Origin: an uncultured Rhodospirillales bacterium
GTDB lineage: Bacteria; Pseudomonadota; Alphaproteobacteria; Kiloniellales; Kiloniellaceae
Direction of reading: 5' to 3'
Length of the DNA stretch: 64,000 nt
Assembly: GCA_913060675.1 (NCBI GenBank)
Contig: CAJXUS010000017.1
Coordinates: 3,988 to 67,987, forward strand
This document shows, piece by piece, positions 5,393-25,969 of this stretch. Numbering within the stretch: the stretch's first letter is position 1; every line of letters begins with the position of its first letter. The position numbers were made by a program, and so were the translations under genes. The notes beneath the pieces were generated by a model, which worked only from the letters and a program-made list of their open reading frames with translations, searched no databases and was not told the origin of the DNA.

Positions 5393-5821
5393 GTGCAGAT
5401 GTCGCAATACCCTTTACCACCAGCCTTACAGCCTAGTTATCTAAGCTACCCAGAATGGGTACGCGGCAAACTACTGTTCCTGCGTGATCTAATTTTGGAA
5501 ACGGCAGAACTTACAAAGGGCGTTGGAAGAATAGAAGAAACGCTTAAGTGGGGCCAACCGAGTTTCCTCACCCCGGAGACAAAAAGCGGCACAACCATCC
5601 GGATTGACCAAACCAAAGCAGACAACGGCCAATATGCGATCTATTTCCACTGCCAAACCAATCTTGTAGATCGCTTTCGTGAGCTTTACCCGCAAGAGAT
5701 GACCTATGGCGGTAATCGGTGCATCATTTTTAATCAGGATGATGAAGTCCCGACTGCCGCACTACAACACTGTATCGCTATGGCCCTGACCTACCACTTA
5801 AGTAAAAATAATCAGCTATAG
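5393..5821 (+). CDS. DUF1801 (YdhG-like) domain protein
   Basis: LRDLILETA...IEETLKWGQPSF...SGTTIRID...YFHCQTNL...GNRCIIF pattern. Confidence 0.8.
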   Translation: MQMSQYPLPPALQPSYLSYPEWVRGKLLFLRDLILETAELTKGVGRIEETLKWGQPSFLTPETKSGTTIRIDQTKADNGQYAIYFHCQTNLVDRFRELYPQEMTYGGNRCIIFNQDDEVPTAALQHCIAMALTYHLSKNNQL

Positions 5822-6082
5822 ATACTTAGTAATTTCTTTAAACTCCCTCAAGGCATCCGCGGTACTACCAGCCCCGTCACTCTTTTCAAGACAGTGATCA
5901 ATATGATCATGAATAAGCACCCGCTTCGCCTGTACCACGGCCTTTTCAACCGCATAAAGCTGCTGGGCCACATCCACACAAGACTGCCCGCTTTCCAACA
6001 TATCCATAATCTTATGCATATGCCCATGCGCCCGCTTCAAGCGGTTCAGAACCTGTTTGTGGGAGGAGTGAGTGTCATTCAT
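5816..6082 (-). CDS. CsoR/RcnR family metal-sensing repressor (NreA-like)
   Basis: HSSH N-terminus, NRLKRAHGH, SCVDVAQQLYAVEKA and HDHIDHCLE motifs. Confidence 0.88.
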   Translation of the reverse strand: MNDTHSSHKQVLNRLKRAHGHMHKIMDMLESGQSCVDVAQQLYAVEKAVVQAKRVLIHDHIDHCLEKSDGAGSTADALREFKEITKYL

Positions 6083-6170
6083 GTGTACATGGTATCTTCA
6101 AAGTTTCAGATAAGGAAAAACTGGAAACAAACCACTTTCCAATTTCATCCTGATAGCAAGAATAATCACC

Positions 6171-6941
6171 TCAACTAAAAACAGCAGCAATCCGGTCTGA
6201 TGAGATACCTTCTTTTATAGTACGCAAATTATTGTAAGTGACAGCACCAACTATAATCCAAAAAGCCATATATAATGACTGAGCCACAGTTGTTACAATA
6301 ACAGCAACTATATCGAAACCCATACCCTTAAATAGAGTGCCAAGGAATTGGCCAAGATAACCTCCGCCTAGGGATATTACTAACAATACCAAAGATAGTC
6401 CCAATAATGACCAGAGATTACCTTTTGTCAGATAATAACTTCTCTTTAAGCAATCGAAAATCCCCGGTTGCTCAACAATAATCACAGGAAATACGACAAA
6501 TAAAACAAGAAAGACTAATACGCCAGGTATGATAAGAAGTGCCAACCCAACGAAAAACAGAATGTTTACGAGGACACCCATTACAATTACGGGGACTAAA
6601 ACTGAAAAGCTTTTAGATAGGCAGTCACCTATCGTGAACTTACGCCCAGTAATGTCCATAAAAACACCATATGTAACTGCGGCAGTAGATACACACGATA
6701 AAATTACTGACAAAAATATAACGCCAAAGTGTACTATCCAATTTATATTCGAAAAAGTACTTGGATCATCAAAGTTAATATCGTATTGGCCAGATGCTAC
6801 TAACCAAGTTACGGCTGGTATTTGAAATAAAATCACTATGGTCACTAAAGGTAATATATTTCTCGAAAAAATATAAAAGCTCCTCCCAAGTGTCTTTCCT
6901 ACACTAAATTCACTACTGATATTTTGATTTATTACTGTCAC
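6171..6941 (-). CDS. Uncharacterised multi-pass membrane protein (paralogue A)
   Basis: 256 aa, about 6 hydrophobic segments, IIVEQPGIFDCLKRSYYLTKGNLW motif, C-terminal YNNLRTIKEG; homologous to 7173-7940. Confidence 0.75.
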   Translation of the reverse strand: MTVINQNISSEFSVGKTLGRSFYIFSRNILPLVTIVILFQIPAVTWLVASGQYDINFDDPSTFSNINWIVHFGVIFLSVILSCVSTAAVTYGVFMDITGRKFTIGDCLSKSFSVLVPVIVMGVLVNILFFVGLALLIIPGVLVFLVLFVVFPVIIVEQPGIFDCLKRSYYLTKGNLWSLLGLSLVLLVISLGGGYLGQFLGTLFKGMGFDIVAVIVTTVAQSLYMAFWIIVGAVTYNNLRTIKEGISSDRIAAVFS

Positions 6942-7116
6942 AGTTTACTTATCCTCTATCCCAAAGACATTATTTACAAATTTCAAAATGTCATCTTTTT
7001 TAAGTAAAGAATTCCAATCCAATAGAAGTAATATTTCCGATTGAGAGCAATAATTTATACGAACGAATTAATGGTTCTGAATGGGCTCTAATTTTTAGTA
7101 GTAACCTTTACAAACA

Positions 7117-7150
7117 ATAGAGGTCGAAAAATTAAATTTTCGACCTCTAT
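7117..7150. terminator. 14-bp perfect stem-loop between the two paralogues
   Basis: ATAGAGGTCGAAAA / loop ATTAAA / TTTTCGACCTCTAT, 22 bp downstream of the stop of 7173-7940. Confidence 0.55.
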
Positions 7151-7172
7151 ATTAGAATAACTTCAATTTAAA

Positions 7173-7940
7173 CTATTCGAATACAGACACTATTTGGTCC
7201 GTAGAGATACCCTCTTTTGCCACCCGCAAATTATTGTAAACAACAGCATAGAGTACAGGTCCTATTGCCGTATAAAATATCTGGAAAGCTATAGAAACAA
7301 TAAGTCCAACAATCTCCATTCCCATTGCAGCTATAATTCCGGAGATAAGAGAGCCAACAATACTTACAACGATGACAATAACCATAAAGATTAGCAAAAT
7401 ACCAAAAAGAGCCCAACGGTTGCCTTTTGTAAGCTCAGCACTACGCCCCAAACTCGCAAATACTCCAGGGTTTTCTATAACAATGACTGGTATCGTCACC
7501 ATTAAAATCATAAAAATGATAATTCCAGGTATAAAGAAGACCATCATCCCTAAGAAACTAAGCACGGACACCACGATTCCAGCTAAAATGGTTGGAACCG
7601 CAACGGATAGACCATGAGAAAAAGACTCAGTAAAATTCACAGGTTTCCCTGTTAAATCTTGAAAAACACCATGCGTTATTGCTGCTGCAGAAACAAAATA
7701 GAATACAAAGGTCAAAATAACAGCAATTAAAGCAACGATACCTAGAAGGGTATCCACTGCTTCAACACCATTACCATAAGACAGAATATCCGTGAACAAA
7801 ACCAAAACCAATATTGGTGCTGCGATGATCAAAACCAATAAATTAAAAGGTATAAAGTTCCGGAAATATACCGAAAAAACCTTACTTAATGTATCGCCAA
7901 TACGAAAATCGTTCCCGACACTCTCATCAATAGTCGTCAT
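7173..7940 (-). CDS. Uncharacterised multi-pass membrane protein (paralogue B)
   Basis: 255 aa, IVIENPGVFASLGRSAELTKGNRW motif, C-terminal YNNLRVAKEG. Confidence 0.75.
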   Translation of the reverse strand: MTTIDESVGNDFRIGDTLSKVFSVYFRNFIPFNLLVLIIAAPILVLVLFTDILSYGNGVEAVDTLLGIVALIAVILTFVFYFVSAAAITHGVFQDLTGKPVNFTESFSHGLSVAVPTILAGIVVSVLSFLGMMVFFIPGIIIFMILMVTIPVIVIENPGVFASLGRSAELTKGNRWALFGILLIFMVIVIVVSIVGSLISGIIAAMGMEIVGLIVSIAFQIFYTAIGPVLYAVVYNNLRVAKEGISTDQIVSVFE

Positions 7941-8115
7941 GTTTCCCCCCTCGAGAAATATAACAATAAATAAAACACGTTTTACGAGAAGAGAACACTA
8001 ACCGAAGATAAAAAAAATATCAAACAGATCAATATCTAAAAGAAAGATCACACTCAGAAATTAATCAAAATATAGACAATTTGATCTACAAGAGCCCCTT
8101 CCCTGATACAAAAGG

Positions 8116-9150
8116 CTATTTTGTATCGTGTTTATTTTCCCGGCGCTTACCAAACAGCATCTTGGCTTCCAAGCGCCTTCGGAGAGCTGCGTAATACGCT
8201 TTGAGAAATTCTGTATCCCTGTGAATTTTTCCTTGATGATTTTTCCAGTAATAATTTGATGAGCTAATATTTGGTTCAACCCAGCCAATCTTGGTTTTAA
8301 TGCGCTGTGTGACTTCTTTAATGGTCTTTGGGGCAACGGCAGGTTTTCGCAAAAGCTCTTCGAGGGTTTGCAATTCATAAATCCCATAGGCATCAACCTG
8401 CTCATCAGTGAAGGCATAGCGTTCCGGTTGTTTCTGCTCTTTGCCCTTTATAAGAGATTCTCCTGTTATTTTCGTGCCACTTTCCTGTGCAATGTCACCC
8501 ATCAACACAGTCTTTGGGATTTTCACCACCCAAGTTCCAGCAATCATATCGCCTGCGCGTAAGCGGTCTTTGTTAAAGAAGGGAATACAAACAAACAGCC
8601 CCACCCAGATAATCGTCAGTAAATCAGTAAACCCCTCACTGCCTGTGCCAAAGGGGGAAAAAAGGATGGAGATCGGTAAAAATAATTCCAGCTCCCGCAT
8701 AAGATTGCGGGCAAAGACAGCGTCTGATCTCAACTGACCGCCATGACGATCCACGACCTTTATACCCAAGGCTCTTTTGCCCGGTGTTCGCCCCTGCCAC
8801 TTAATTTCAAAGAAGGTGAAGTAAAAATTATACCAAAGAAAGAGCACAACATTACTCACGGCAAAGAGGATCTGAATGGACCCTTTATCGGTTTCAAGAG
8901 AGGTCCAAATGGCAGAAAACACAAAGGCAATGATCAGAACAACAGGTAATCCATAAACGATCATAAGATCGAGTAACAAGGCGGCGAAACGGTCTCCCCG
9001 AGAGGCCAATTCAAGCCGAACAGGAACACCTTCAGGCGTGATCACCCTGCGCCAAGCTCCTTCAGCTTTAGCTTTCTTCTTACTGGTCTTTGTTTTCTTA
9101 CTGGCTTTTTTGCCCGGATCGTATTTAGGAGAAATTAATGCCTTTGACAT
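8116..9150 (-). CDS. RDD family membrane protein with a C-terminal extension
   Basis: ITPEGVPVRLELASRGDRFAALLLD (RD), GRTPGKRALGIKVV, RNLMRELE and LRAGDMIAGTWVV motifs. Start placed at ATG 9150 (GGAGG upstream). Confidence 0.9.
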   Translation of the reverse strand: MSKALISPKYDPGKKASKKTKTSKKKAKAEGAWRRVITPEGVPVRLELASRGDRFAALLLDLMIVYGLPVVLIIAFVFSAIWTSLETDKGSIQILFAVSNVVLFLWYNFYFTFFEIKWQGRTPGKRALGIKVVDRHGGQLRSDAVFARNLMRELELFLPISILFSPFGTGSEGFTDLLTIIWVGLFVCIPFFNKDRLRAGDMIAGTWVVKIPKTVLMGDIAQESGTKITGESLIKGKEQKQPERYAFTDEQVDAYGIYELQTLEELLRKPAVAPKTIKEVTQRIKTKIGWVEPNISSSNYYWKNHQGKIHRDTEFLKAYYAALRRRLEAKMLFGKRRENKHDTK

Positions 9151-10142
9151 ATTTTCCTCCCCCAATATCCCAAATAACTAAGCCAGAAAACTAGCATCAG
9201 GCCACCGATTGTAAAACGGGTAGTTATGTCTGTTATCCATTGACGACCAAAGCTCTCTAGCAGTGCTGCAATAAGAAGCATTAAAACAGCCCCAATCACC
9301 ACCTTTGCGGCCTGCTTGCCCTCACTTGCAAGGTTGGATAGGCGGGTTTTCTGCCCGGGTGATATTATTCCCTTTGCCACCCCCAAACCGGCAGCACCAC
9401 AGAGTATGATCGCCAAGAGTTCCGTCGTTCCATGGATGGATAACCAAGCTGCGATATCTAGACCAAGCCCACGGCTGGCATAGAGCGCCACAAAAGATCC
9501 AAGTATCAACCCGTTGTAAAATATAAGAATAAACGTCGGCACACCCAAGGCAAAACCAAGGGCAAAAGAGAGCATGCCAACAGAAGAGTTATGCGAAAAA
9601 AGCCCTGACGCAAAATAATTCAGGTCATCTGCATCAAGTTCTCCGCCATCATAAAGCCCCTTGCGAAGATCTTCTGTCGCGCTGGCAGGGTTTCTTCCTC
9701 CTGCCATGCCCTCTCCCACCATCGTGTAGTACCACTCTTCATTTCCAATAGTAAGATAGTAAGCAATAAGAGCCCCAGCGAGCATAATAAGGGTCGTCAG
9801 TAAAACGCGCCAACGGGCATTCCAAACCGCGATCGGAAAATCTTCGAAGATAAACTTGAGGACAGTTCCGCCAAAACTCGCATGTACACCGTAAATACAA
9901 TAATAGGCTCTGGTCGAAAGCAGCTCGAGATATTCCAGTAAATTACGATCAAGCGACACGCCCCTAGCCACTGATAACGAAGAGAGCGTGAAACGATAAA
10001 GATTGGGCAGACGTGTAAGCTCTTGAGCACTAAGGGCTTTAATACCTTTTTTCTCAATGGTCTCAACCAGAGACTGAAGCTCTTTCCATGACCCTTCTCG
10101 CTCTTTTCGAAATTGGGAACTCTTGAGGACGCCATCTGACAT
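9135..10142 (-). CDS. Stage II sporulation protein M (SpoIIM/DUF95)-like membrane protein
   Basis: FSHNSSVGMLSFALG, NGLILG, IHGTTELLAIILCGAAGL and AALLESF motifs; N-terminal ELTRLPNLYR...LSVAR. Confidence 0.88.
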   Translation of the reverse strand: MSDGVLKSSQFRKEREGSWKELQSLVETIEKKGIKALSAQELTRLPNLYRFTLSSLSVARGVSLDRNLLEYLELLSTRAYYCIYGVHASFGGTVLKFIFEDFPIAVWNARWRVLLTTLIMLAGALIAYYLTIGNEEWYYTMVGEGMAGGRNPASATEDLRKGLYDGGELDADDLNYFASGLFSHNSSVGMLSFALGFALGVPTFILIFYNGLILGSFVALYASRGLGLDIAAWLSIHGTTELLAIILCGAAGLGVAKGIISPGQKTRLSNLASEGKQAAKVVIGAVLMLLIAALLESFGRQWITDITTRFTIGGLMLVFWLSYLGYWGRKICQRH

Positions 10143-10162
10143 TTAATTAACACCCCTCATGA

Positions 10163-11479
10163 TCAGATAAGCTCCTGATGTTTAATTTCGAGATATCGCT
10201 CAACTAATGCCGCACTCACAGACGCTGCTGGAGCTTGAATGCAATGAACCCCAAGTCGACGAAGCCTTTCAAAGACAACCTGCCGGTCTCTTAAGAAATC
10301 ATCTGCGACCACTGACTTGGCAATATTATGAATGGAACTTGGCTTTTGGTCTGCGACGTCTGCCAGTTCGCGGTCTTCTAGAGTTACAAATATAATCAGA
10401 TGCCGTTTGGCTAACCGCGTAACATTCTCAATCATCAACTCTGCGGTTACCGTATCTACAAAATCCGTATAGAGAACGATAAGCGAACGCCGTTGTAATC
10501 GACCCATGAGATTAGAAAGACCCAAAGTAAAATTGGTCTCATTATATTGGTAGTCGAGTTTGGCACAGTTTGACTGCAAGTGATTAAAAGCCTGATTACC
10601 GCCAAGGGGTTCTGCATGTATCCTGATTTTGGCATCAAATCCATAGAGGCCGACCCTATCGCCCCCCCGCAAGGCCATGAAGCCCAAAAGCAGCCCCGCA
10701 TTGATCATATGGTCAAGCTGCGGAAGCCCATCCAGGGGGCGGGTCATGAGATGCCCGGTATCAAAAGCCAAAATCACATTGTGATTACGCTCGACCTGAA
10801 ACTCTTTACAGACTAGTTTTCGATGTCGGGCCGAGTGTTTCCAGTCGATTGATCTCAAGTCAAAGCCCGGAACATACTCTTTGAGCGCATCAAACTCGGT
10901 GCCGTCTCCACGGTGTTTTTGTATTTTCGTCCCGTGGAATGCATCTCGGCTGTTAATCTGTAATGCAGCGGCTTTCACAGCATGAACATTTGGGAGAATA
11001 GATACTTTATGATCCAATGGCCATATGGTTTGTCTCTGGATAAGCCCCCAAGGGCTATACCATCTTACCCAAAGTCCCGAGATATGCGCAGATCCCCGTC
11101 GTTTCACAATAAGCGGAAAAGCAATTTCGCCCTCTTGTGAATTATCGAGGTGACGTATTTTAGCGACATCTGGCCTGACAAGATACTCATCCTCAACTTC
11201 TAACAAAGCCTCCAAACCATAAGCCTTGTGCCTGCTGCCAACCGACAAAGAAAAGTAAGCATAATCATCGTGGCCAGCATAAAGAAGCGGGGTAATATTC
11301 TGAGCCAGCGTAACTCGTGAGGGTGCCAAGGAGTTTAAAAAATCAACACCAATGAGTAAAAGAACCAGAAACAAGTAGACGATGCCAAACAGCCACAAAC
11401 TCTCATCCCAGACAATCAGGACAAGACTTAGTGGTATCCCTAGGGATATGAGTAAGGCGGCACGCTGAGTGGGTCTCAT
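10163..11479 (-). CDS. DUF58 domain (vWA-like) protein, MoxR partner
   Basis: GDGTEFDALKEYVPGFDLRSIDWKHSAR signature, AFDTGHLM, GDRVGL, RRSLIVLYTD; two N-terminal TM helices. Confidence 0.92.
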   Translation of the reverse strand: MRPTQRAALLISLGIPLSLVLIVWDESLWLFGIVYLFLVLLLIGVDFLNSLAPSRVTLAQNITPLLYAGHDDYAYFSLSVGSRHKAYGLEALLEVEDEYLVRPDVAKIRHLDNSQEGEIAFPLIVKRRGSAHISGLWVRWYSPWGLIQRQTIWPLDHKVSILPNVHAVKAAALQINSRDAFHGTKIQKHRGDGTEFDALKEYVPGFDLRSIDWKHSARHRKLVCKEFQVERNHNVILAFDTGHLMTRPLDGLPQLDHMINAGLLLGFMALRGGDRVGLYGFDAKIRIHAEPLGGNQAFNHLQSNCAKLDYQYNETNFTLGLSNLMGRLQRRSLIVLYTDFVDTVTAELMIENVTRLAKRHLIIFVTLEDRELADVADQKPSSIHNIAKSVVADDFLRDRQVVFERLRRLGVHCIQAPAASVSAALVERYLEIKHQELI

Positions 11480-12435
11480 TATCTTGGCGCGGCTGTCTGT
11501 TCTAGAATTTCACGAATAACACTGGTGGCCCGAATGCCCTCTATCTCAGCACTTGGGGATAGAACAACACGGTGGTGTAAACCGGGAATAGCAATAAACT
11601 TAACATCATCAGGAATTACATAATCCCGCCCTTGTAGAGCAGCATAAGCCCGTGATGCCGCAGCCAGCATGGTTGCGGAACGCGGTGATCCACCGAATTG
11701 AAGAGATGGGTGTTCCCGGGTCGCGCGGACAACCGAGACGATATAGTTTGTAATTTCCGGGCTCAGTTTAATACCACTGACAACCGTGCGCATTTCTTCC
11801 AGTTTGGCTAAATCAGCAACACTTCTAAGCCCAAAATCATCCAGCTTAGGCATAGAGGTTTGATGACCATGTCGGGTAACAATCGATCTTTCTTCCGCTT
11901 CACTTGGATACTCGAGAACATACTTGAACATAAAACGATCAAGCTGAGCTTCTGGTAGAGGATAAGTCCCTTGTTGTTCTATCGGGTTCTGGGTTGCGAT
12001 GACCAAGAAACCCTCTCCCAGATCATGACTGGTGCCATCAATCGTCACCGTACGCTCGCTCATGGCTTCAAGCAGGGCAGATTGTGTTTTTGGTGGCGTT
12101 CGGTTGATCTCATCAGCCAGCAAAAGATCCGTAAATATCGGTCCTTTTGTTAAGGAGAATTCATTGGTTTGAAAGTTAAACAGGTTGGTTCCCAGTACAT
12201 CCCCAGGCATAAGATCGGGTGTAAACTGGATACGGCCAAAATTCAGGCTCAAGGCCTTGGAAAAGGATCTCACTAAAAGAGTTTTACCTGTTCCAGGCAC
12301 CCCTTCTAAAAGTAAGTGCCCTTTGCACAATAAGCTGACAAGCATCAGGTCCAAGGCGCCTTCTTGTCCAATGATTGTACGACGTACTTCTGCTTTCAAA
12401 CCGTTACTAATGGTCCGGATATCATCCAGTTCCAT
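11479..12435 (-). CDS. MoxR family AAA+ ATPase
   Basis: Walker [25 protein letters not shown], Walker [50 protein letters not shown]. Confidence 0.95.
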
Positions 12436-13678
12436 GCAACATCTCCTGTTTCCAACGATGAATATCCTGAGCCGCCTTTATGGCCGCCAGAACATTAAAT
12501 GAATTTGATGTATATTGTTGTTCGGCTTTGTGAACGGCCTCACTACCATTGATCCGTAATCCCCGAGCATGGCCGACACGATCAAGCCATTGGAGAAGTT
12601 CATACCCTTCAAGATCTTTAGGGGCGTGGAGGTTGGTCGCGACAGAATGTAGAGATCTTTCAACATAATGACGCAGCATCAAGGCGCCATGCCCTCCAAA
12701 AGCAAGTAACTCAGCCGTATTCCCGATTAAAAATTCTTTGCCTGCCTGATAGGACTTCTCTGTTTTTTCCGGTGCGCCAAATCGAGACATCGAACTCCAC
12801 ACAAGCAACAATACAGAACAGACAGCCAATAGAGTAACCACAGCAAAGGGAAATTCTAACATCTTCCGCCATAAGCTCGGCTCTGAAGCATAGCCATGGG
12901 AGGTTTCATCGACGATCACGCCGCCGACATTATTCAAGGTCAACTCATTGAGAACACTAACGATAAACTCTGCGTTGCCACCGTTATCCAGGCCATGATT
13001 AGACAGCACATCGGGATCGCTTAAAATCCATGTTCGATCAATATCATATAGAAAGCCCGGCTTAATAACTTCTGCCAACAAAATGCCGCTATCATTATAA
13101 ACCAGAGGTCGAATAAGGTCGGAATCACCCGATATCAGTTGAGGCGCAGGCAGTGAAGGTTGCTGGCTTAACGAGAAAAAATCAGGATCCCATGAAAAAT
13201 TTTCGGCCCGTAAATCAAGATCGCTACGAACAAGGGCAATATCATTCGAAACATAATCAATTATGTTTTCGACCTCTGTAGGACTTCGAAGTTCGAGGAG
13301 CTTTACCCATTTACGTTTTTTACGGTCTTGTTGAGCATTCCATTTAGGTAAAACGATTAAAGATCCGACACCGCTAAAACCAGACAAGGTGTCCGATAGA
13401 CCCTTTTGGCTTTCAGGTTCAATAACAAGTTTCACATCAGAAAAATTAAAACCACCCTGGGCTTGCTGACTGATCCTTACCCGGTAATTTAACTTTTTAA
13501 GTAGTTTGGTGAAAGCCTTGTGGCCAATCGCCGATTCAGAATAGGAGTTTGCGCCATACGAGCTAATTTGAATGAGTTTATCTTGATATATCGAAGCAAT
13601 GAAAGCACCGGCAAAAGACAGCGTTCCGATTAAAACCAACCAGAAAAGAGTCCGTTTGGAAAATATCCGATCATCCAT
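12422..13678 (-). CDS. DUF4350 domain membrane-anchored protein
   Basis: [34 protein letters not shown] and SRFGAP motifs; position upstream of MoxR. Confidence 0.8.
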
Positions 13679-14538
13679 CAGATTACCGCCCCCTCAACCG
13701 AGGTTGATGAGCGTCCCGGTTTTACAAAGACATGAAACGCATCCCTGCATACATTAAATTCATGTTCACCAGCTGATCGGCCCCCAAACTCGGTAAGCTC
13801 TTCAGCATCGACAATAACACTCATTTTCTGACGCACATCAGATGGTAACCAGTCAGCTTTTAATATCTCTCGATTTGTCAAAGCTGCAGGCAAAGCTGAG
13901 TGATAGCTTTCACGAACATGTTTCAAGCAACAAAACAATAAAGCCCTGATCGCGGCTTCAAACTGACCTTTTTGGGCCAGTTGATCTGCGTATTCCAAGG
14001 TCTCCTTGCTCAATGTCTCTGGCATATTGGTGACACGAGAATAAGAAGCTGGTTTATCTTCAAGAACAGTTTTGTTTTGAGGTCGCCGCTTCAAATCCTT
14101 GAGATAATTAAAAATCGCTTTGGCGATTAACACCGCAACTAAAGCCAAAAAGCCATAAACCAAAATTTTCCCCAAAAACCCTAAGGCAGAAAGGTCTAGT
14201 TTCTCAGAGTTTTCTTCTTTTTTCGGAGGCGGAATTTTTTTTTCAACCTTGGTTTCTTTTATTTCGAGCGGGAGCTCGCTTTGATAGCGATCATCTGAAT
14301 ACAAACTATCCATTGCTTCCTCTATTTCAGAAGAAGCAGCATAGGATGTGTCCAGCGATGCCAAATGACCGATGATCACAAGAGAGATAAAGCAAAAGAA
14401 AAAGCCTTTTCGAACGGATCGAAAGACTTTTGTCTGCTTATTTATTTTCCCAGATGACAACACTGGATTAAATAACCCCCAACACACCTTAATCAACAAC
14501 ACATTATTGGTGGTTAATAAAATTACTGCGTACAGCAA
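13678..14538 (-). CDS. DUF4129 domain membrane protein (true start uncertain)
   Basis: TM helix, then ADQLAQKGQFEAAIRALL...ALTNREIL...ELTEFGGR...EFNVCRDAF, typical of DUF4129 C-termini. Confidence 0.75.
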   Translation of the reverse strand: MLYAVILLTTNNVLLIKVCWGLFNPVLSSGKINKQTKVFRSVRKGFFFCFISLVIIGHLASLDTSYAASSEIEEAMDSLYSDDRYQSELPLEIKETKVEKKIPPPKKEENSEKLDLSALGFLGKILVYGFLALVAVLIAKAIFNYLKDLKRRPQNKTVLEDKPASYSRVTNMPETLSKETLEYADQLAQKGQFEAAIRALLFCCLKHVRESYHSALPAALTNREILKADWLPSDVRQKMSVIVDAEELTEFGGRSAGEHEFNVCRDAFHVFVKPGRSSTSVEGAVI

Positions 14539-14740
14539 CGCATCACCAAAACCTTTACGAGCATTGCCCGAACAATGACACAGCCATAGGAAATATGTCT
14601 AGAGGTTTTATACCAATTAAAACAACTAAGAAGCTTTAAATCGAATATTTCAGAATCACACCGGTTCAATCAATATCATAGTACAAACGCAACGTGACGC
14701 ATATTGTAACATTAGGTAACTGGATGACGGCTTCATAGGC

Positions 14741-15292
14741 TCAAGCTAATTCTTGAGATATTAATTGGTCAAAAGTTGCCATCCCATCCAGGGAACGTGC
14801 AACTATGAGCCCGCCCTCAAGCAAAGCAAGAAGGCGTAAAGACTTTTGTCTCGCTTGTTCAATTGAAATGTTATCATCACTTTTTGAAAGATAAACTTGA
14901 TCCAACCACAAAAGGTTTTTTACGAAAAACACTTTTGAAACGACAATCATATTCTCAGGTAGGGATGAAATTTCAGCTCCGAGCATGCCACACAAACACA
15001 TCTGGTCACCTGAAGAATAAGAAGACCTGAAAGCAGCAATATATCGAGATATTTGCTCCTCAAAGGTGTACCTATCGGGAGGACCTAGGGCTTCGAGAAA
15101 CTGTTCTGTGTAGCGCTCGGCCACGGCAGCACCGAGATCAGCTTTGGAAGGAAAATGATAATGAATACTGGCGGTTTTAATACCAACATCTGCAGCAATA
15201 TCACGAAAGCTAAAAGCATTGTAACCTTTAGTTCGAATATAGCCTTCTGCCGCATCCATAATTTTCGTCGACGTGTCTGCTGTACTACTCAT
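14741..15292 (-). CDS. TetR/AcrR family transcriptional regulator (NemR-like)
   Basis: IMDAAEGYIRTKGYNAFSFRDIAADVGIKTASIHYHFPSKADL HTH; MCLCGML motif. Confidence 0.92.
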   Translation of the reverse strand: MSSTADTSTKIMDAAEGYIRTKGYNAFSFRDIAADVGIKTASIHYHFPSKADLGAAVAERYTEQFLEALGPPDRYTFEEQISRYIAAFRSSYSSGDQMCLCGMLGAEISSLPENMIVVSKVFFVKNLLWLDQVYLSKSDDNISIEQARQKSLRLLALLEGGLIVARSLDGMATFDQLISQELA

Positions 15293-15402: not shown

Positions 15403-16092
15403 ATGCGCATCAATGCCGATTTCAAGCAATTAGTTATCATCAAACCAGAAGACACAACCTGGACTCCCTCGCCTGCAATGGGTGTTGAACGGATCATGCT
15501 TGATCGCATTGGGGATGAAGTTGCAAGAGCGACAACGATTGTTCGCTTTGCAGAGGATAAATATTTCCCAGAGCACCAGCACGACGGTGGCGAAGAGTTT
15601 TTCGTATTAGAGGGCGTGTTTTCAGATCAGTACGGAGATTTCCCAGCAGGGACCTATGTACGTAACCCCGTGGGTACAAGTCACTCACCCCATACGGTTG
15701 AAGGCTGTACGATCTTTGTAAAACTATGGCAATTTGAACAACAAGATAATAAACAATTTTCCATAGATACTAACACTGCGCAATGGATCTCAGGTGATAA
15801 TCAAGAGCAAGATATCCTCCCCCTTCATCAATACAAAGATGAAATCGTTCAACTTGAAAGATGGAATAAAGGTGCCGATATCGATCGTGTGGCGCCGAAA
15901 GGTGGCCTTGAAATATTAATTCTTGCAGGGACACTTCAAAATAACGGCGAACTCTATCCCCAAAGAACCTGGCTTCGTTATCCCGAAGCAGAAAGAATTA
16001 ATTTCACTGTTTTTGAAAGTTGCACCCTGTTTTGTAAAACGGGCCACCTACTCAATCTCGATAGCCCTGATAAACAGCCTGAAAAAGAATAA
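15403..16092 (+). CDS. ChrR-like tandem cupin domain protein
   Basis: MRINADF, SPAMGVERIMLDRIGDEVARATTIVRF, HQHDGGEEFFVLEG, GTYVRNP, HSPH and IFVKLWQF motifs. Confidence 0.88.
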   Translation: MRINADFKQLVIIKPEDTTWTPSPAMGVERIMLDRIGDEVARATTIVRFAEDKYFPEHQHDGGEEFFVLEGVFSDQYGDFPAGTYVRNPVGTSHSPHTVEGCTIFVKLWQFEQQDNKQFSIDTNTAQWISGDNQEQDILPLHQYKDEIVQLERWNKGADIDRVAPKGGLEILILAGTLQNNGELYPQRTWLRYPEAERINFTVFESCTLFCKTGHLLNLDSPDKQPEKE

Positions 16093-23154: not shown

Positions 23155-24345
23155 TTAGAGACGGATTTTTTTACGAATTCGAACACCAATAAAATTACCG
23201 GCAAGAGCAGTAAATAACCAAAGCCAGCCGTGAATACTGCCTGAAGCAACACCACTAAAAAATGCTCCAATATTGCACCCATAGGCGAGACGAGCCCCAT
23301 AACCTAGCATTAGTCCGCCAATAAGAGCCGTGATAATCCCTTTCGCTGTCACATTTTGAGATTTTCCAAATTTTCCAGCCAGAAAAGAAGCGCTCATCGC
23401 TCCAGCAATAATACCGATATTCGTAGCTGAAGAATCGTGTCTGAAAATCGATCGATCCAAGGCCGCCATACTGCCTCTCCAATAGGGTATGTCCGAAAGA
23501 TCTACGCCCAAAAGAGTAACCAGTTTCCCTCCCCACAAGGTAATACCAGAAGTTATCCCCCAAGGATGTCCCAGAGTTGCCAGCATCGCAAAATTCAATA
23601 AAGCCAACGCAACGGCACCAAGAACCAAAGGCCATGGCCCTTGGGTTAACCTGAAGAGATAGGACCTTTTAGGAGCTGCAAAAGTTTTAGAGGGTAGTTC
23701 TTTTATTTCAATTTTTTGAATGAAAAAATAAAGTAGCACGAAAACGACGAGGTGGAGAGCCAGAGCCAATTCCCACCCCCAAAGAGAGACCATTGATAAA
23801 CGATCAAATTTAGGGAGGCTGTGCCAAAAGGGTAAATTAATCGTTGCGAGGACCGAGCCCAACATGAATGTCAGAAGCGTGACAGCCATGCGAATACTAC
23901 CACCGCCAACGGTAAATAGTGTACCACTTGCACAGCCACCAGCTAGCTGCATTCCAATGCCAAAGATAAAAGCCCCCACTGCAACGCCTGTTCCAGCAGG
24001 ATTAACAAACCCACCGACCCTGTGGCCAAAAATACCACCACTGTCCAGTACAGGAAAAAACAGGGTAACGACTATGGCCAGCATAATGATCTGGGCTTTA
24101 AGCCCCGCACCCCATCGATCTGTGAGAAACCGGCGCCAGGCAGAAGTAAACCCAAATGCTGCATGATAGAGACTTATACCAAGAGCCACCCCCAATCCTG
24201 TCGCAATGGCAGCGCGATCTCCGACAAATAGATAAAGATAGGTGACAAGACCCACAGATAGAATCAGGGGTAAAAACCTATTTAATGGTGTAGTCACTTC
24301 AGATTGAACGAGCATTAAAAGCCTCAATTTAAACGAATCTGTCAT
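23155..24345 (-). CDS. YeeE/YedE (TsuA-like) sulfur-compound transporter
   Basis: GMQLAGGCASGTL and GARLAYGCNIGAFFSG motifs; multiple TM helices. Confidence 0.9.
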   Translation of the reverse strand: MTDSFKLRLLMLVQSEVTTPLNRFLPLILSVGLVTYLYLFVGDRAAIATGLGVALGISLYHAAFGFTSAWRRFLTDRWGAGLKAQIIMLAIVVTLFFPVLDSGGIFGHRVGGFVNPAGTGVAVGAFIFGIGMQLAGGCASGTLFTVGGGSIRMAVTLLTFMLGSVLATINLPFWHSLPKFDRLSMVSLWGWELALALHLVVFVLLYFFIQKIEIKELPSKTFAAPKRSYLFRLTQGPWPLVLGAVALALLNFAMLATLGHPWGITSGITLWGGKLVTLLGVDLSDIPYWRGSMAALDRSIFRHDSSATNIGIIAGAMSASFLAGKFGKSQNVTAKGIITALIGGLMLGYGARLAYGCNIGAFFSGVASGSIHGWLWLFTALAGNFIGVRIRKKIRL

Positions 24346-24604
24346 TATCTTAGGCCCGATTGCCGCTTACTTCCTTTCACAATTTTGTCAGATGGCTGTG
24401 TGCACTAATTTTATGTAAGGGAAAGGCTGCGCAAAAATCGTAACCTTTCCGCCATTCTCAAAAACAAACTCCGATCACAGTGATCACAACCCTCCAAATC
24501 AGTCAGGTTTGACATCTTTTGAGCACTGGAAACTAACGGTCATAACATGCCATATGAAGTTTAGTTCTTAATCATTGCTCATAATAACTGCTGGGAGGCA
24601 TACC

Positions 24605-25969
24605 GTGTTGTTTGATTGTCGTGGACACGAAGTAACAGCATTAAATCAAAACGCCGTTGATCATTTCGACAACACTGTCTCTCTGTTTTTGGCTCATTCG
24701 AAAAAAACACCCGAAGCTCTAAGCCTTACGCTTGATACAGATCCTCAGATGGTAATCGCTCTTGTTGCCAAAGGCTTCTTTTATAAGATGCTCGCCAAAA
24801 TAACTACGGACCCTATTGCCCTAGAAGCTGTTTTCAAGGCTAAATTAAGTGTCCGAGAACGCGGTGCAAATCATAGAGAAAGAGAACTCCTCCAAGCACT
24901 TGATGACTGGTGTTACGGTGATATGGATAAAGCCATCTCTCGCCTCGATAACCTATTGGATGTCTATCCACTCGATGCGCTTACTGTAAAACTTAATCAC
25001 GCTTGTCAGTTTCTTCGTGGCAAAAATCATGGCATGCGGGCATCGACAACAAAAATTCTCTCTGCCTGGAATGAAGGTATACGGGATTACGGTTTTGTTC
25101 TTGGTTGTCATTGTTTCGGACTTGAAGAAACCGGGTCGTATGCAGAAGCAGAAAAAACAGGAAAATACGGTGTAGAGCTTGCCCCAAATGATGCGTGGGG
25201 TACGCACGCTGTAGGTCATGTTCTGGAGATGTCCAATAGGCCGACCGAGGGTCTTGCTTGGCTGAACCAGTATCAAGATGAATGGGAACAGTGTAATAAC
25301 TTCTCCTATCACATGCACTGGCATAAGGCATTGTTTCACCTGGAACTTGGCCAAAAAGAAGACGTTTTAAAACTTTACGATTCATACATTAGAAAAGACC
25401 ATACCGATGATTTCCGCGATATAAGCAACGGGGTTTCGCTGCTCTATCGCCTGGAACTCGAAGGTGTGGATGTTGGCAACCGCTGGGAGGAGATGGCAAC
25501 CCTATCTGCGAACCACGTAAACGATCACAGTCTTGCTTTTGCTGATGCCCATTATCTCCTCGCAATTCTGAGTAGTGGTAATCGTAATGCTGCAGATGCC
25601 TTCATAGATACCATGCAACAAAAAAGCTTGGGTGAAGGCACTTCACAACAAGTATTCCGTGATTTCGGAATGCCACTCGCCAAAGCAATTCATGCCTGCA
25701 AAACAGGTGACGATGATAAGTGCGTTGACCATTTATTACCCGTATTTGATGATCTCCAACAAATCGGTGGCAGTCATGCTCAACGCGACGTATTCCACCG
25801 ACTGTTAATCGATGCGACAATCCGTTCAGGCCGTCACTCAACCGCAAAAAACTTGCTTAGCCGTCGCCTAGAAGCCCGTCCAGATAATATATGGGCTTTA
25901 CAACGTATGGACAAAATTTCAGGTGCAGGAGACGTTAGTTCTCGTGATAAAGTGGAAATGTCAGCTTAA
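24605..25969 (+). CDS. TTC38-like tetratricopeptide repeat protein (paralogue 1)
   Basis: FGLEETG, DAWGTHAVGHVLEM, HMHWHKALFHLE, SLLYRLELEG and GGSHAQRDVF motifs. GTG start at 24605 with GGGAGG upstream. Confidence 0.85.
   Translation: MLFDCRGHEVTALNQNAVDHFDNTVSLFLAHSKKTPEALSLTLDTDPQMVIALVAKGFFYKMLAKITTDPIALEAVFKAKLSVRERGANHRERELLQALDDWCYGDMDKAISRLDNLLDVYPLDALTVKLNHACQFLRGKNHGMRASTTKILSAWNEGIRDYGFVLGCHCFGLEETGSYAEAEKTGKYGVELAPNDAWGTHAVGHVLEMSNRPTEGLAWLNQYQDEWEQCNNFSYHMHWHKALFHLELGQKEDVLKLYDSYIRKDHTDDFRDISNGVSLLYRLELEGVDVGNRWEEMATLSANHVNDHSLAFADAHYLLAILSSGNRNAADAFIDTMQQKSLGEGTSQQVFRDFGMPLAKAIHACKTGDDDKCVDHLLPVFDDLQQIGGSHAQRDVFHRLLIDATIRSGRHSTAKNLLSRRLEARPDNIWALQRMDKISGAGDVSSRDKVEMSA

Follow-up and report, generated by a model that had tools for sequence, protein, structure and literature searches.

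The window analysed here is a 64,000-nucleotide stretch of contig CAJXUS010000017.1 (positions 3,988 to 67,987, assembly GCA_913060675.1) from an uncultured Rhodospirillales bacterium of the family Kiloniellaceae, and it carries a block of eight genes (A to H) that includes a MoxR AAA+ ATPase gene. The locus is very probably intact and an ordinary example of a widespread type of module, that of Rv3689-Rv3695 ('moxR2'). Seven families make up this module, namely DUF4129, DUF4350, MoxR AAA+, DUF58, SpoIIM-like, RDD and DUF7847-like. The module is not new as a system; what is added here is its seventh family, the behaviour of that family as a swappable cassette in Kiloniella, gene fusions between the subunits, a metal ion-dependent adhesion site (MIDAS) with a degenerate motif, and a GIFT fold predicted by modelling. 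The eight co-oriented open reading frames (ORFs) occupy positions 6171-14538:

13678..14463, minus strand: gene A, bitopic membrane protein (orthologue alignment and topology; the maximal ORF extends to 14538)
12422..13678, minus strand: gene B, DUF4350 protein (PF14258, 26.2 bits)
11479..12435, minus strand: gene C, MoxR-proper AAA+ ATPase (AAA_3, 212.2 bits; AAA_lid_2, 79.7 bits)
10163..11479, minus strand: gene D, DUF58 protein (PF01882, 86 bits; VWA_2, 21.9 bits, weak)
9135..10142, minus strand: gene E, SpoIIM-family polytopic membrane protein (PF01944, 106.9 bits)
8116..9150, minus strand: gene F, RDD-family membrane protein (PF06271, 70.5 bits)
7173..7940, minus strand: gene G, six-transmembrane DUF7847/GPDPase_memb/UPF0259-like protein (weak PF10110 match; family alignment)
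6171..6941, minus strand: gene H, paralogue of G (weak UPF0259/DUF7847 matches)

The gene order and junctions given in an initial annotation of this DNA were confirmed. Genes A and B overlap by 1 nt (TGATG), B and C by 14 nt, and C and D by 1 nt (TAATG), with the DUF58 gene overlapping the moxR stop codon. A 20-nt gap containing GAGGGG separates D from E, and E overlaps F by 16 nt if F begins at the ATG at 9150, as public gene calls have it.

The order A-B-C-D-E-F was identical in 10 Kiloniella loci, three Rhodobacteraceae, six other alphaproteobacterial families and a Planctomycetota metagenome-assembled genome (MAG). The alphaproteobacterial sample comprised 151 genomes, one per family; exactly seven had a SpoIIM-like protein, a full-length DUF4350 protein was found in precisely those seven, and none of the other 144 was positive. 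The A-B-C-D-E-F order was seen in all six regions retrieved from this sample, one of which ends early at a contig end. A full-length homologue of protein E was counted in 32 of 301 Pseudomonadota genomes (~10%), and the E subfamily comprises 3,467 cluster representatives at 50% identity. All five non-alphaproteobacterial Pseudomonadota examined showed the rotated order RDD-SpoIIM-DUF4129-DUF4350-MoxR-DUF58, and the same rotated order was found in an Acidobacteriota genome. The full seven-family set was also present in loci L023, L028, L031, L033, L037 and L039, the last of which, a metagenomic locus reached through the G/H family, has the mycobacterial type of gene order. The gene set is not special to this genome; the same families occur across many bacterial phyla.

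In Mycobacterium tuberculosis, the Rv3689-Rv3695 block encodes a membrane protein, a DUF4350 protein (Rv3691), MoxR (Rv3692), a DUF58 protein (Rv3693), a SpoIIM protein (Rv3694c) and an RDD protein (Rv3695) (PMC8191103). Compared through the gene table of that publication, the mycobacterial locus has the same families as the window locus. Orthologues are present in M. chelonae and M. abscessus (MAB_0386c-0392c), and the block is co-regulated in M. chelonae (PMC8191103). Rv3694c and Rv3695 were recovered together in an M. tuberculosis pull-down of the divisome-associated protein Rv0954 (PMC8093794), the sole experimental pointer in the literature searched.

In an alphaproteobacterial MAG (L028, 8051-9703), an NnrS gene and a RidA-like gene are inserted between DUF58 and MoxR; this split module still holds all parts, together with two G/H-like genes. 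The ORFs flanking the L014 module (6299-7090 and 8947-9798) were considered as extra components and rejected, being arginine-rich, spurious-looking high-GC frames with no Pfam match.

The initial annotation had assigned six domain labels to A to F. Those for MoxR, DUF58, SpoIIM and RDD were supported directly by Pfam (cut-offs in bits: DUF58 23.4, SpoIIM 26.9, RDD 24.1, DUF4350 30.4 and DUF4129 24.8), whereas the DUF4350 match of protein B, at 26.2 bits, was under its cut-off and the DUF4129 label of protein A could be reached through orthologues only. Protein A had no match in Pfam even at E ≤ 10, the search returned no transglutaminase match, and a whole-genome scan with PF13559 did not match the locus of gene A. 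The same profile matched 4 of 12 protein A orthologues (best 2.1e-6). The Rhodobacteraceae orthologue (L013) scored 26.9 bits for DUF4129, above the cut-off, and the syntenic Planctomycetota gene (L023) is annotated as DUF4129. From these comparisons, we consider the DUF4129 label to be right by orthology, while not directly visible in the window sequence. The start of gene A at 14538, as initially given, corresponds to a TTG that opens the maximal ORF and appears over-long; the GTG at 14463 is the start preferred by public calls and by alignment of the orthologues. From that start, the protein is 261 amino acids long with a signal-peptide-like N-terminus. The topology of the module proteins was predicted by simple hydropathy and the positive-inside rule, which gave protein A a signal-like N-terminus, a short periplasmic stretch, one transmembrane segment and a cytoplasmic DUF4129-like helical domain. 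Its orthologues share the motif LTNRE...AEELTEFGGR.

For protein B, the syntenic orthologues scored well above the DUF4350 cut-off (75.9 bits in L014 and 99.3 bits in L033). A structural model of B (predicted local distance difference test score, pLDDT, of 73.5, which is moderate) was comprised of a first transmembrane segment, a periplasmic alpha/beta domain, a second transmembrane segment and a cytoplasmic C-terminal helical bundle. The top Foldseek match of the alpha/beta domain was the N-terminal domain of IFT52 (5fms/5fmr; E 1.7e-3, probability 1.00, TMt 0.52-0.54), and GATase1 folds came next. On this model, the periplasmic domain of B is a GldG/IFT52-type GIFT fold, in agreement with the match of DUF4350 to GldG obtained by HHpred (PMC5898192). 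As residues 45-260 contain no cysteine, the domain is predicted to be non-catalytic.

Protein C carries the motifs of a MoxR ATPase, including Walker A GVPGTGKT (45-52), Walker B D108-E109, sensor-1 N150 and the arginine finger R167, and these residues were invariant across the 22 orthologues compared. Its closest solved relative was PDB entry 2r44 (2.1e-72), the only close one, which is unannotated. A secondary match to bpMoxR reached 35.8 bits, far under the AAA_3 score. An adjacent DUF58 gene is the criterion of Snider & Houry 2006 for the MoxR-proper/MRP subfamily, as that work is cited in PMC12067865, and gene D is such a neighbour here. The role of DUF58 beside MoxR has still not been clarified according to the same 2025 review (PMC12067865).

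Protein D (438 amino acids) has an N-terminal transmembrane hairpin and a cytoplasmic domain resembling von Willebrand factor A (vWA). The MIDAS-like site pointed out in the initial annotation (DTGHLM...T...YTD) is present as D240-T-G-H-L-M, followed by ETNFTL and TDFVD. Its threonine and distal aspartate are retained among the orthologues (ETN.TL, TDF.D); the serines of the canonical D-x-S-x-S...T...D pattern are not. In all 21 orthologues compared, the first serine is replaced by glycine, giving the consensus D-[TNC]-G-x-[LAS]-M, and the second is kept only in the Acidobacteriota copy. By this alignment, protein D has a degenerate MIDAS (D-x-G-x-x-M).

A second MoxR-DUF58 pair of a different type was found elsewhere in the genome (contig C13, ~23955-25590; L027). 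It encodes a MoxR protein of 337 amino acids and a short cytosolic DUF58 protein of 321 amino acids, also without the canonical DxSxS, and probably represents the broadly conserved alphaproteobacterial operon of the Bat/RL3499 type.

Protein E was modelled with good confidence (pLDDT 87.3) as an N-terminal four-helix domain and a six-helix membrane domain. Public precomputed annotation assigns the N-terminal cytoplasmic four-helix domain to the Pfam family DUF8413 (PF28475). A fold search of the PDB with this model returned no meaningful match (best E 0.14, TM-score ≤ 0.2), so that the SpoIIM fold yielded no functional lead, and PDB sequence searches with profiles of E, D and B found nothing. 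The presence of a SpoIIM-like protein in a non-sporulating Gram-negative bacterium had been described initially as unexplained. PF01944 is in fact widespread outside spore formers, as the size of the E subfamily attests, and SpoIIM homologues of non-sporulating bacteria have been noted beside vWA and COG0714 genes (PMC5898192). No match to SpoIID (PF08486) or SpoIIP (PF07454) was found anywhere in the genome, which was scored 100% complete, in a search for which the Bacillus subtilis control was positive; E is therefore not predicted to belong to an engulfment-type complex. Protein F is lysine-rich at its N-terminus and ends in a conserved cytoplasmic domain of ~130 amino acids.

Among the cluster representatives, SpoIIM was fused to RDD in four proteins, DUF58 to SpoIIM in one and GAF to SpoIIM in one. 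Fusions of this kind are a classical sign of physical or functional coupling, here among D, E and F as judged from the domain architectures. The GAF fusion protein (P0277, 1161 amino acids) joins triple GAF domains to a SpoIIM domain, which hints at small-molecule sensing linked to some SpoIIM-family proteins.

Genes G and H, initially noted as two further membrane genes following the cluster, are present as described, although they are not mere followers. Their products share 37% identity. In Pfam, they gave weak matches to GPDPase_memb, UPF0259 and BPSS1780, and public annotation contains a weak DUF7847 match for H. The G/H family has three conserved motifs, VxxP...E, RS..LT.G.RW and the C-terminal tail Y..LR..KEG......VF[D/E]. 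Conservation was highest in loop 2 (0.69) and the tail (0.68), both of which are cytoplasmic, and lowest in the periplasmic loops (0.43-0.44). In Kiloniella, 9 of 10 loci have members of the family adjoining the module on the same strand, as do 2 of 3 loci in Rhodobacteraceae. Members lie beside it on the opposite strand, in two copies each, in three further alphaproteobacterial families, and as three convergent copies beside the module of the Planctomycetota MAG; distant relatives were found upstream of RDD in two non-alphaproteobacterial genomes. Copy number per module ranged from 0 to 3. As an independent test, eight family members were taken from a profile search and the genomic surroundings of each were inspected. 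Five adjoined a module, in four different arrangements, and three did not. Taken together, gene neighbourhood identifies the G/H family as a conserved seventh component of the module rather than a bystander.

In rotated non-alphaproteobacterial modules (L033, 7195-8166 and 8308-9075; P0171), DUF975/GPDPase_memb-like accessory proteins were observed with an N-terminal NPF/NPY..P motif and without the C-terminal KEG...VF[DE]. To judge from these motifs, the alphaproteobacterial and rotated module types may use different docking tails.

The loci closest to that of the window all belong to Kiloniella, with core protein identities of 47-99% across the genus. Within this group, the G/H slot behaves differently from the rest of the locus. 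The window and its closest relative (L010) shared 90.7% DNA identity over the 10 kb that run to the end of F; identity then collapsed across 5811-8121, where the alignable DNA shrank to 187 nt at 80% and 277 nt at 66%, and picked up again at 5811 with 90.3%. The slot holds one gene in L010 and two in the window, and the single L010 gene product shares 41-45% identity with G and H. Conversely, G shares 88% DNA identity with its K. antarctica counterpart, while the flanks share only 77%. GC content at third codon positions (GC3) was 0.336 for G and 0.296 for H, compared with 0.39-0.46 for A to F, H having the lowest value among the window's 41 long ORFs (mean 0.410, standard deviation 0.039). 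Given the collapse of identity and the low GC3, the G/H slot is a site of gene replacement, with a vertically inherited core, and in Kiloniella G and H behave as a replaceable low-GC3 cassette. This amounts to a natural experiment within one genus, in which the core retains up to 96-99% protein identity while the DUF7847-like slot is replaced, and it singles out the DUF7847-like subunit as the variable part.

The contig that holds L010 (JBALWN010000008.1) carries the label 'MAG: Halopseudomonas aestusnigri', the name of a gammaproteobacterium. Over 17 kb, flanking genes included, its DNA identity to the window is ~90%, and the contig was probably mis-binned or mislabelled.

As a whole, the findings are best explained if the products of A to H form one inner-membrane complex driven by MoxR, an explanation to which we would give an even chance of being right. 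We infer the physical complex from the conservation across phyla, the strict co-occurrence of SpoIIM-like and DUF4350 proteins and the gene fusions; its direction of action and physiological role are likewise conjectural. In such a complex, a cytoplasmic MoxR hexamer would dock on the DUF58 protein, a membrane-tethered partner, at its vWA-like domain, and DUF58 would in turn contact the SpoIIM-like/RDD pair, as the fusions suggest. The bitopic proteins A (DUF4129) and B (DUF4350) would connect cytoplasmic helical domains to the periplasm, where B would bear its putatively non-catalytic GIFT domain. G and H would be exchangeable partners or clients, docking through their conserved cytoplasmic loop and C-terminal tail. 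By hydrolysing ATP, MoxR would then assemble, gate or remodel the membrane complex in the service of cell-envelope or membrane homeostasis. For this remodelling mechanism as worded, our confidence falls a little short of even. The membrane machine proposed in the initial annotation, in which MoxR and DUF58 act on a client, was reasonable but generic: a conserved unit around MoxR and a membrane-anchored DUF58 protein was found, and nothing identified the client.

Several observations weigh against a single complex of this kind. Members of the G/H family are absent beside some modules (L006, L012, L014, L019 and L020), and in the window G and H are set off by gaps of 175 and 231 nt, respectively, with a hairpin between them. 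No enzyme or substrate gene was conserved beside the module across the lineages examined. Without the MIDAS serines, clients may not be captured through a metal in the classical manner of MoxR-vWA systems; the speculative idea that the acidic C-terminus of G and H serves as a MIDAS ligand of DUF58 is weakened for the same reason, these serines being missing from the orthologues.

Of the other explanations, a dedicated export, secretion or surface-assembly system is unlikely. Its conduit would consist of the polytopic proteins (SpoIIM-like, RDD and DUF7847-like), with the periplasmic GldG-like DUF4350 domain acting on cargo and MoxR/DUF58 powering the apparatus or putting it together. A 'novel secretion system' was proposed for arCOG01314 (DUF4350) with vWA and COG0714 by Makarova et al. 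2015 (PMC5898192), and both the modelled GIFT/GldG-like fold of the DUF4350 domain and the predominance of membrane proteins among the subunits are consistent with that proposal. Against this, no cargo gene, signal-bearing neighbour or outer-membrane component was conserved beside the module in the lineages examined, monoderm as well as diderm lineages carry the module, and the fold search with the model of E matched no transporter. It is rather improbable, too, that the locus serves metal or cofactor insertion or enzyme activation in the manner of NorQ/NorD, CbbQ/CbbO, CoxD/CoxE or RavA/ViaA, with a membrane or periplasmic target enzyme encoded elsewhere. Such activity is the established role of MoxR-vWA pairs, as summarised in PMC12067865, and the window does encode a MoxR-proper ATPase with all catalytic motifs and a vWA-like partner; the MIDAS of that partner, however, is degenerate throughout the 21 orthologues, the neighbourhood holds no conserved enzyme gene, and the known activase systems lack five or six dedicated membrane proteins.

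The replacement of the G/H slot between genomes with 90% identity on either flank bears on a further reading, in which the fast-turnover G and H would act as sensors, decoys or immunity-like elements of a conflict or defence system and MoxR/DUF58 as its effector switch. The lowest GC3 in the window (that of H), the copy number of 0 to 3 and the weak bpMoxR match would fit such a system, and a role in conflict has been proposed for MoxR-vWA ternary systems (Kaur et al. 2020, as cited in PMC12067865). A search of the eight proteins against PADLOC-DB 2.0, however, left seven of them without a match and gave MoxR only P-loop-level noise (E ≥ 1e-4), so that the defence role suggested in the initial annotation gained no support. 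Pfam revealed no beta-propeller or effector domain in the eight proteins, unlike the MoxR-vWA-beta-propeller ternary systems; across Kiloniella, the A-F core is inherited vertically and the housekeeping genes that flank it are conserved; and elsewhere the flanks are riboflavin genes, prfA/prmC, scpAB and similar genes, not defence islands. We therefore regard defence as highly improbable. That the genes are neighbours by chance or through shared regulation alone, with no common machine, is scarcely credible: G and H do have intergenic regions of their own, but the set is conserved across phyla in several permuted arrangements, the SpoIIM-like and DUF4350 proteins co-occur perfectly, and the genes show translational coupling and fusions.

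Returning to the MoxR-driven inner-membrane complex, G and H could be its interchangeable specificity or client subunits, docked on an invariant A-F core by the cytoplasmic loop RS..LT.G.RW and the C-terminal tail, with periplasmic loops and whole cassettes exchanged between close relatives under diversifying selection (e.g., by phages, bacteriocins or changing envelope ligands). This extension is a long shot. If true, the widespread module would be an 'engine plus swappable membrane adaptor' system and not a fixed housekeeping complex.

Three further features were located around and within the gene block:

14741..15292, minus strand: TetR-family regulator (TetR_N, 46.7 bits), directly upstream of the module
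14544..14609, minus strand: conserved non-coding block of ~65 nt upstream of gene A (alignment of 7 Kiloniella loci)
7117..7150, minus strand: terminator-like hairpin between G and H (14 bp, T-rich tail)

The order TetR-A-B-C-D-E-F is syntenic within Kiloniella, where the TetR gene was found in 9 of 10 loci; it does not lie beside the module in other lineages. By its distribution, it is a Kiloniella-specific neighbour outside the conserved module. The block at 14544-14609 was nearly invariant in the seven Kiloniella loci (TGGCTGTG.CAT...C.CGT), while the surrounding intergenic DNA was unalignable, and is a promoter or operator candidate, possibly serving the neighbouring TetR regulator. An Rfam scan of the block matched no family. 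A sigma-54 reading of TGGCTG-N5-TTGT was rejected, as the -12 element is not kept in L003, L007 and L008. When a 16-mer of the block was searched genome-wide, 71 matches were obtained compared with 25 for the control (≤ 3 mismatches); a search this loose does not define a regulon. The hairpin at 7117-7150 is probably a terminator, which would imply a separate promoter for H.

Just downstream of H, at 5816-6082, lies a metal-sensing repressor gene of the CsoR/RcnR type (Trns_repr_metal), and a Cupin_7 (ChrR-like) protein is encoded upstream of the TetR gene at 15403-16092. Both genes stay adjacent in the closest Kiloniella relatives, and no functional tie to the module was indicated.

The literature searched contained no functional study of the module, none joining DUF4129 with MoxR and none giving a function to Rv3690-Rv3695, in keeping with the initial statement that the gene set has no assigned substrate; it yielded gene tables and the comparative-genomics paper of 2015. 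Among multi-gene membrane systems that have no tested function, this module ranks, to our knowledge, with the more widespread. An account of what a MoxR ATPase does with its five or six dedicated membrane partners would close a gap both in AAA+ biology and in envelope physiology.

The module can be placed among several known systems. RavA-ViaA, CbbQ-CbbO and NorQ-NorD share with it the logic of an AAA+ MoxR ring and a vWA adaptor; they belong to other MoxR subfamilies, however, with a canonical MIDAS, defined soluble or membrane enzyme clients and no dedicated polytopic partners. The MoxR-DUF58-TgpA operons, of which we take Pseudomonas aeruginosa PA2875-PA2873, with its transglutaminase-DUF4129 membrane protein, to be an example, share the MoxR-proper ATPase and DUF58, followed by a membrane protein that ends in DUF4129. 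They differ in having no DUF4350, SpoIIM or RDD genes, and the window locus in turn has neither the transglutaminase core nor DUF3488. Operons of the Bat/RL3499-RL3502 type likewise share an MRP-subfamily MoxR, a DUF58 partner and membrane proteins. In contrast to these, the window cluster is without BatA, BatB or TPR genes, and its DUF58 protein is membrane-anchored and 438 amino acids long, compared with the 321-amino-acid cytosolic protein of the second pair. B. subtilis SpoIIM, of the SpoIID-SpoIIM-SpoIIP engulfment complex, belongs to the same Pfam family as E (PF01944). Protein E differs in its additional N-terminal DUF8413 domain and its MoxR-module context, and is a family member rather than a functional equivalent.

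The DUF4350 (arCOG01314)-vWA-COG0714 ATPase neighbourhood was predicted by Makarova et al. 2015, who also showed DUF4350 to be GldG/flavodoxin-like, to form a secretion or membrane-remodelling complex (PMC5898192). Those neighbourhoods share with the window locus the GldG-like extracytoplasmic domain of DUF4350, a MoxR-type ATPase and a vWA protein, whereas the archaeal clusters add Ig-like/S-layer-type proteins and are without RDD; the seven-family set and its DUF7847-like partner do not appear in PMC5898192. The mycobacterial moxR2 locus, which has the same families, differs from that of the window in its gene order, in a SpoIIM gene on the opposite strand, in its monoderm host and in a mycobacteria-specific glpK neighbour. 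Relative to the mycobacterial locus, the window is distinguished by DUF7847-like genes that lie at the RDD end and are duplicated and cassette-like.

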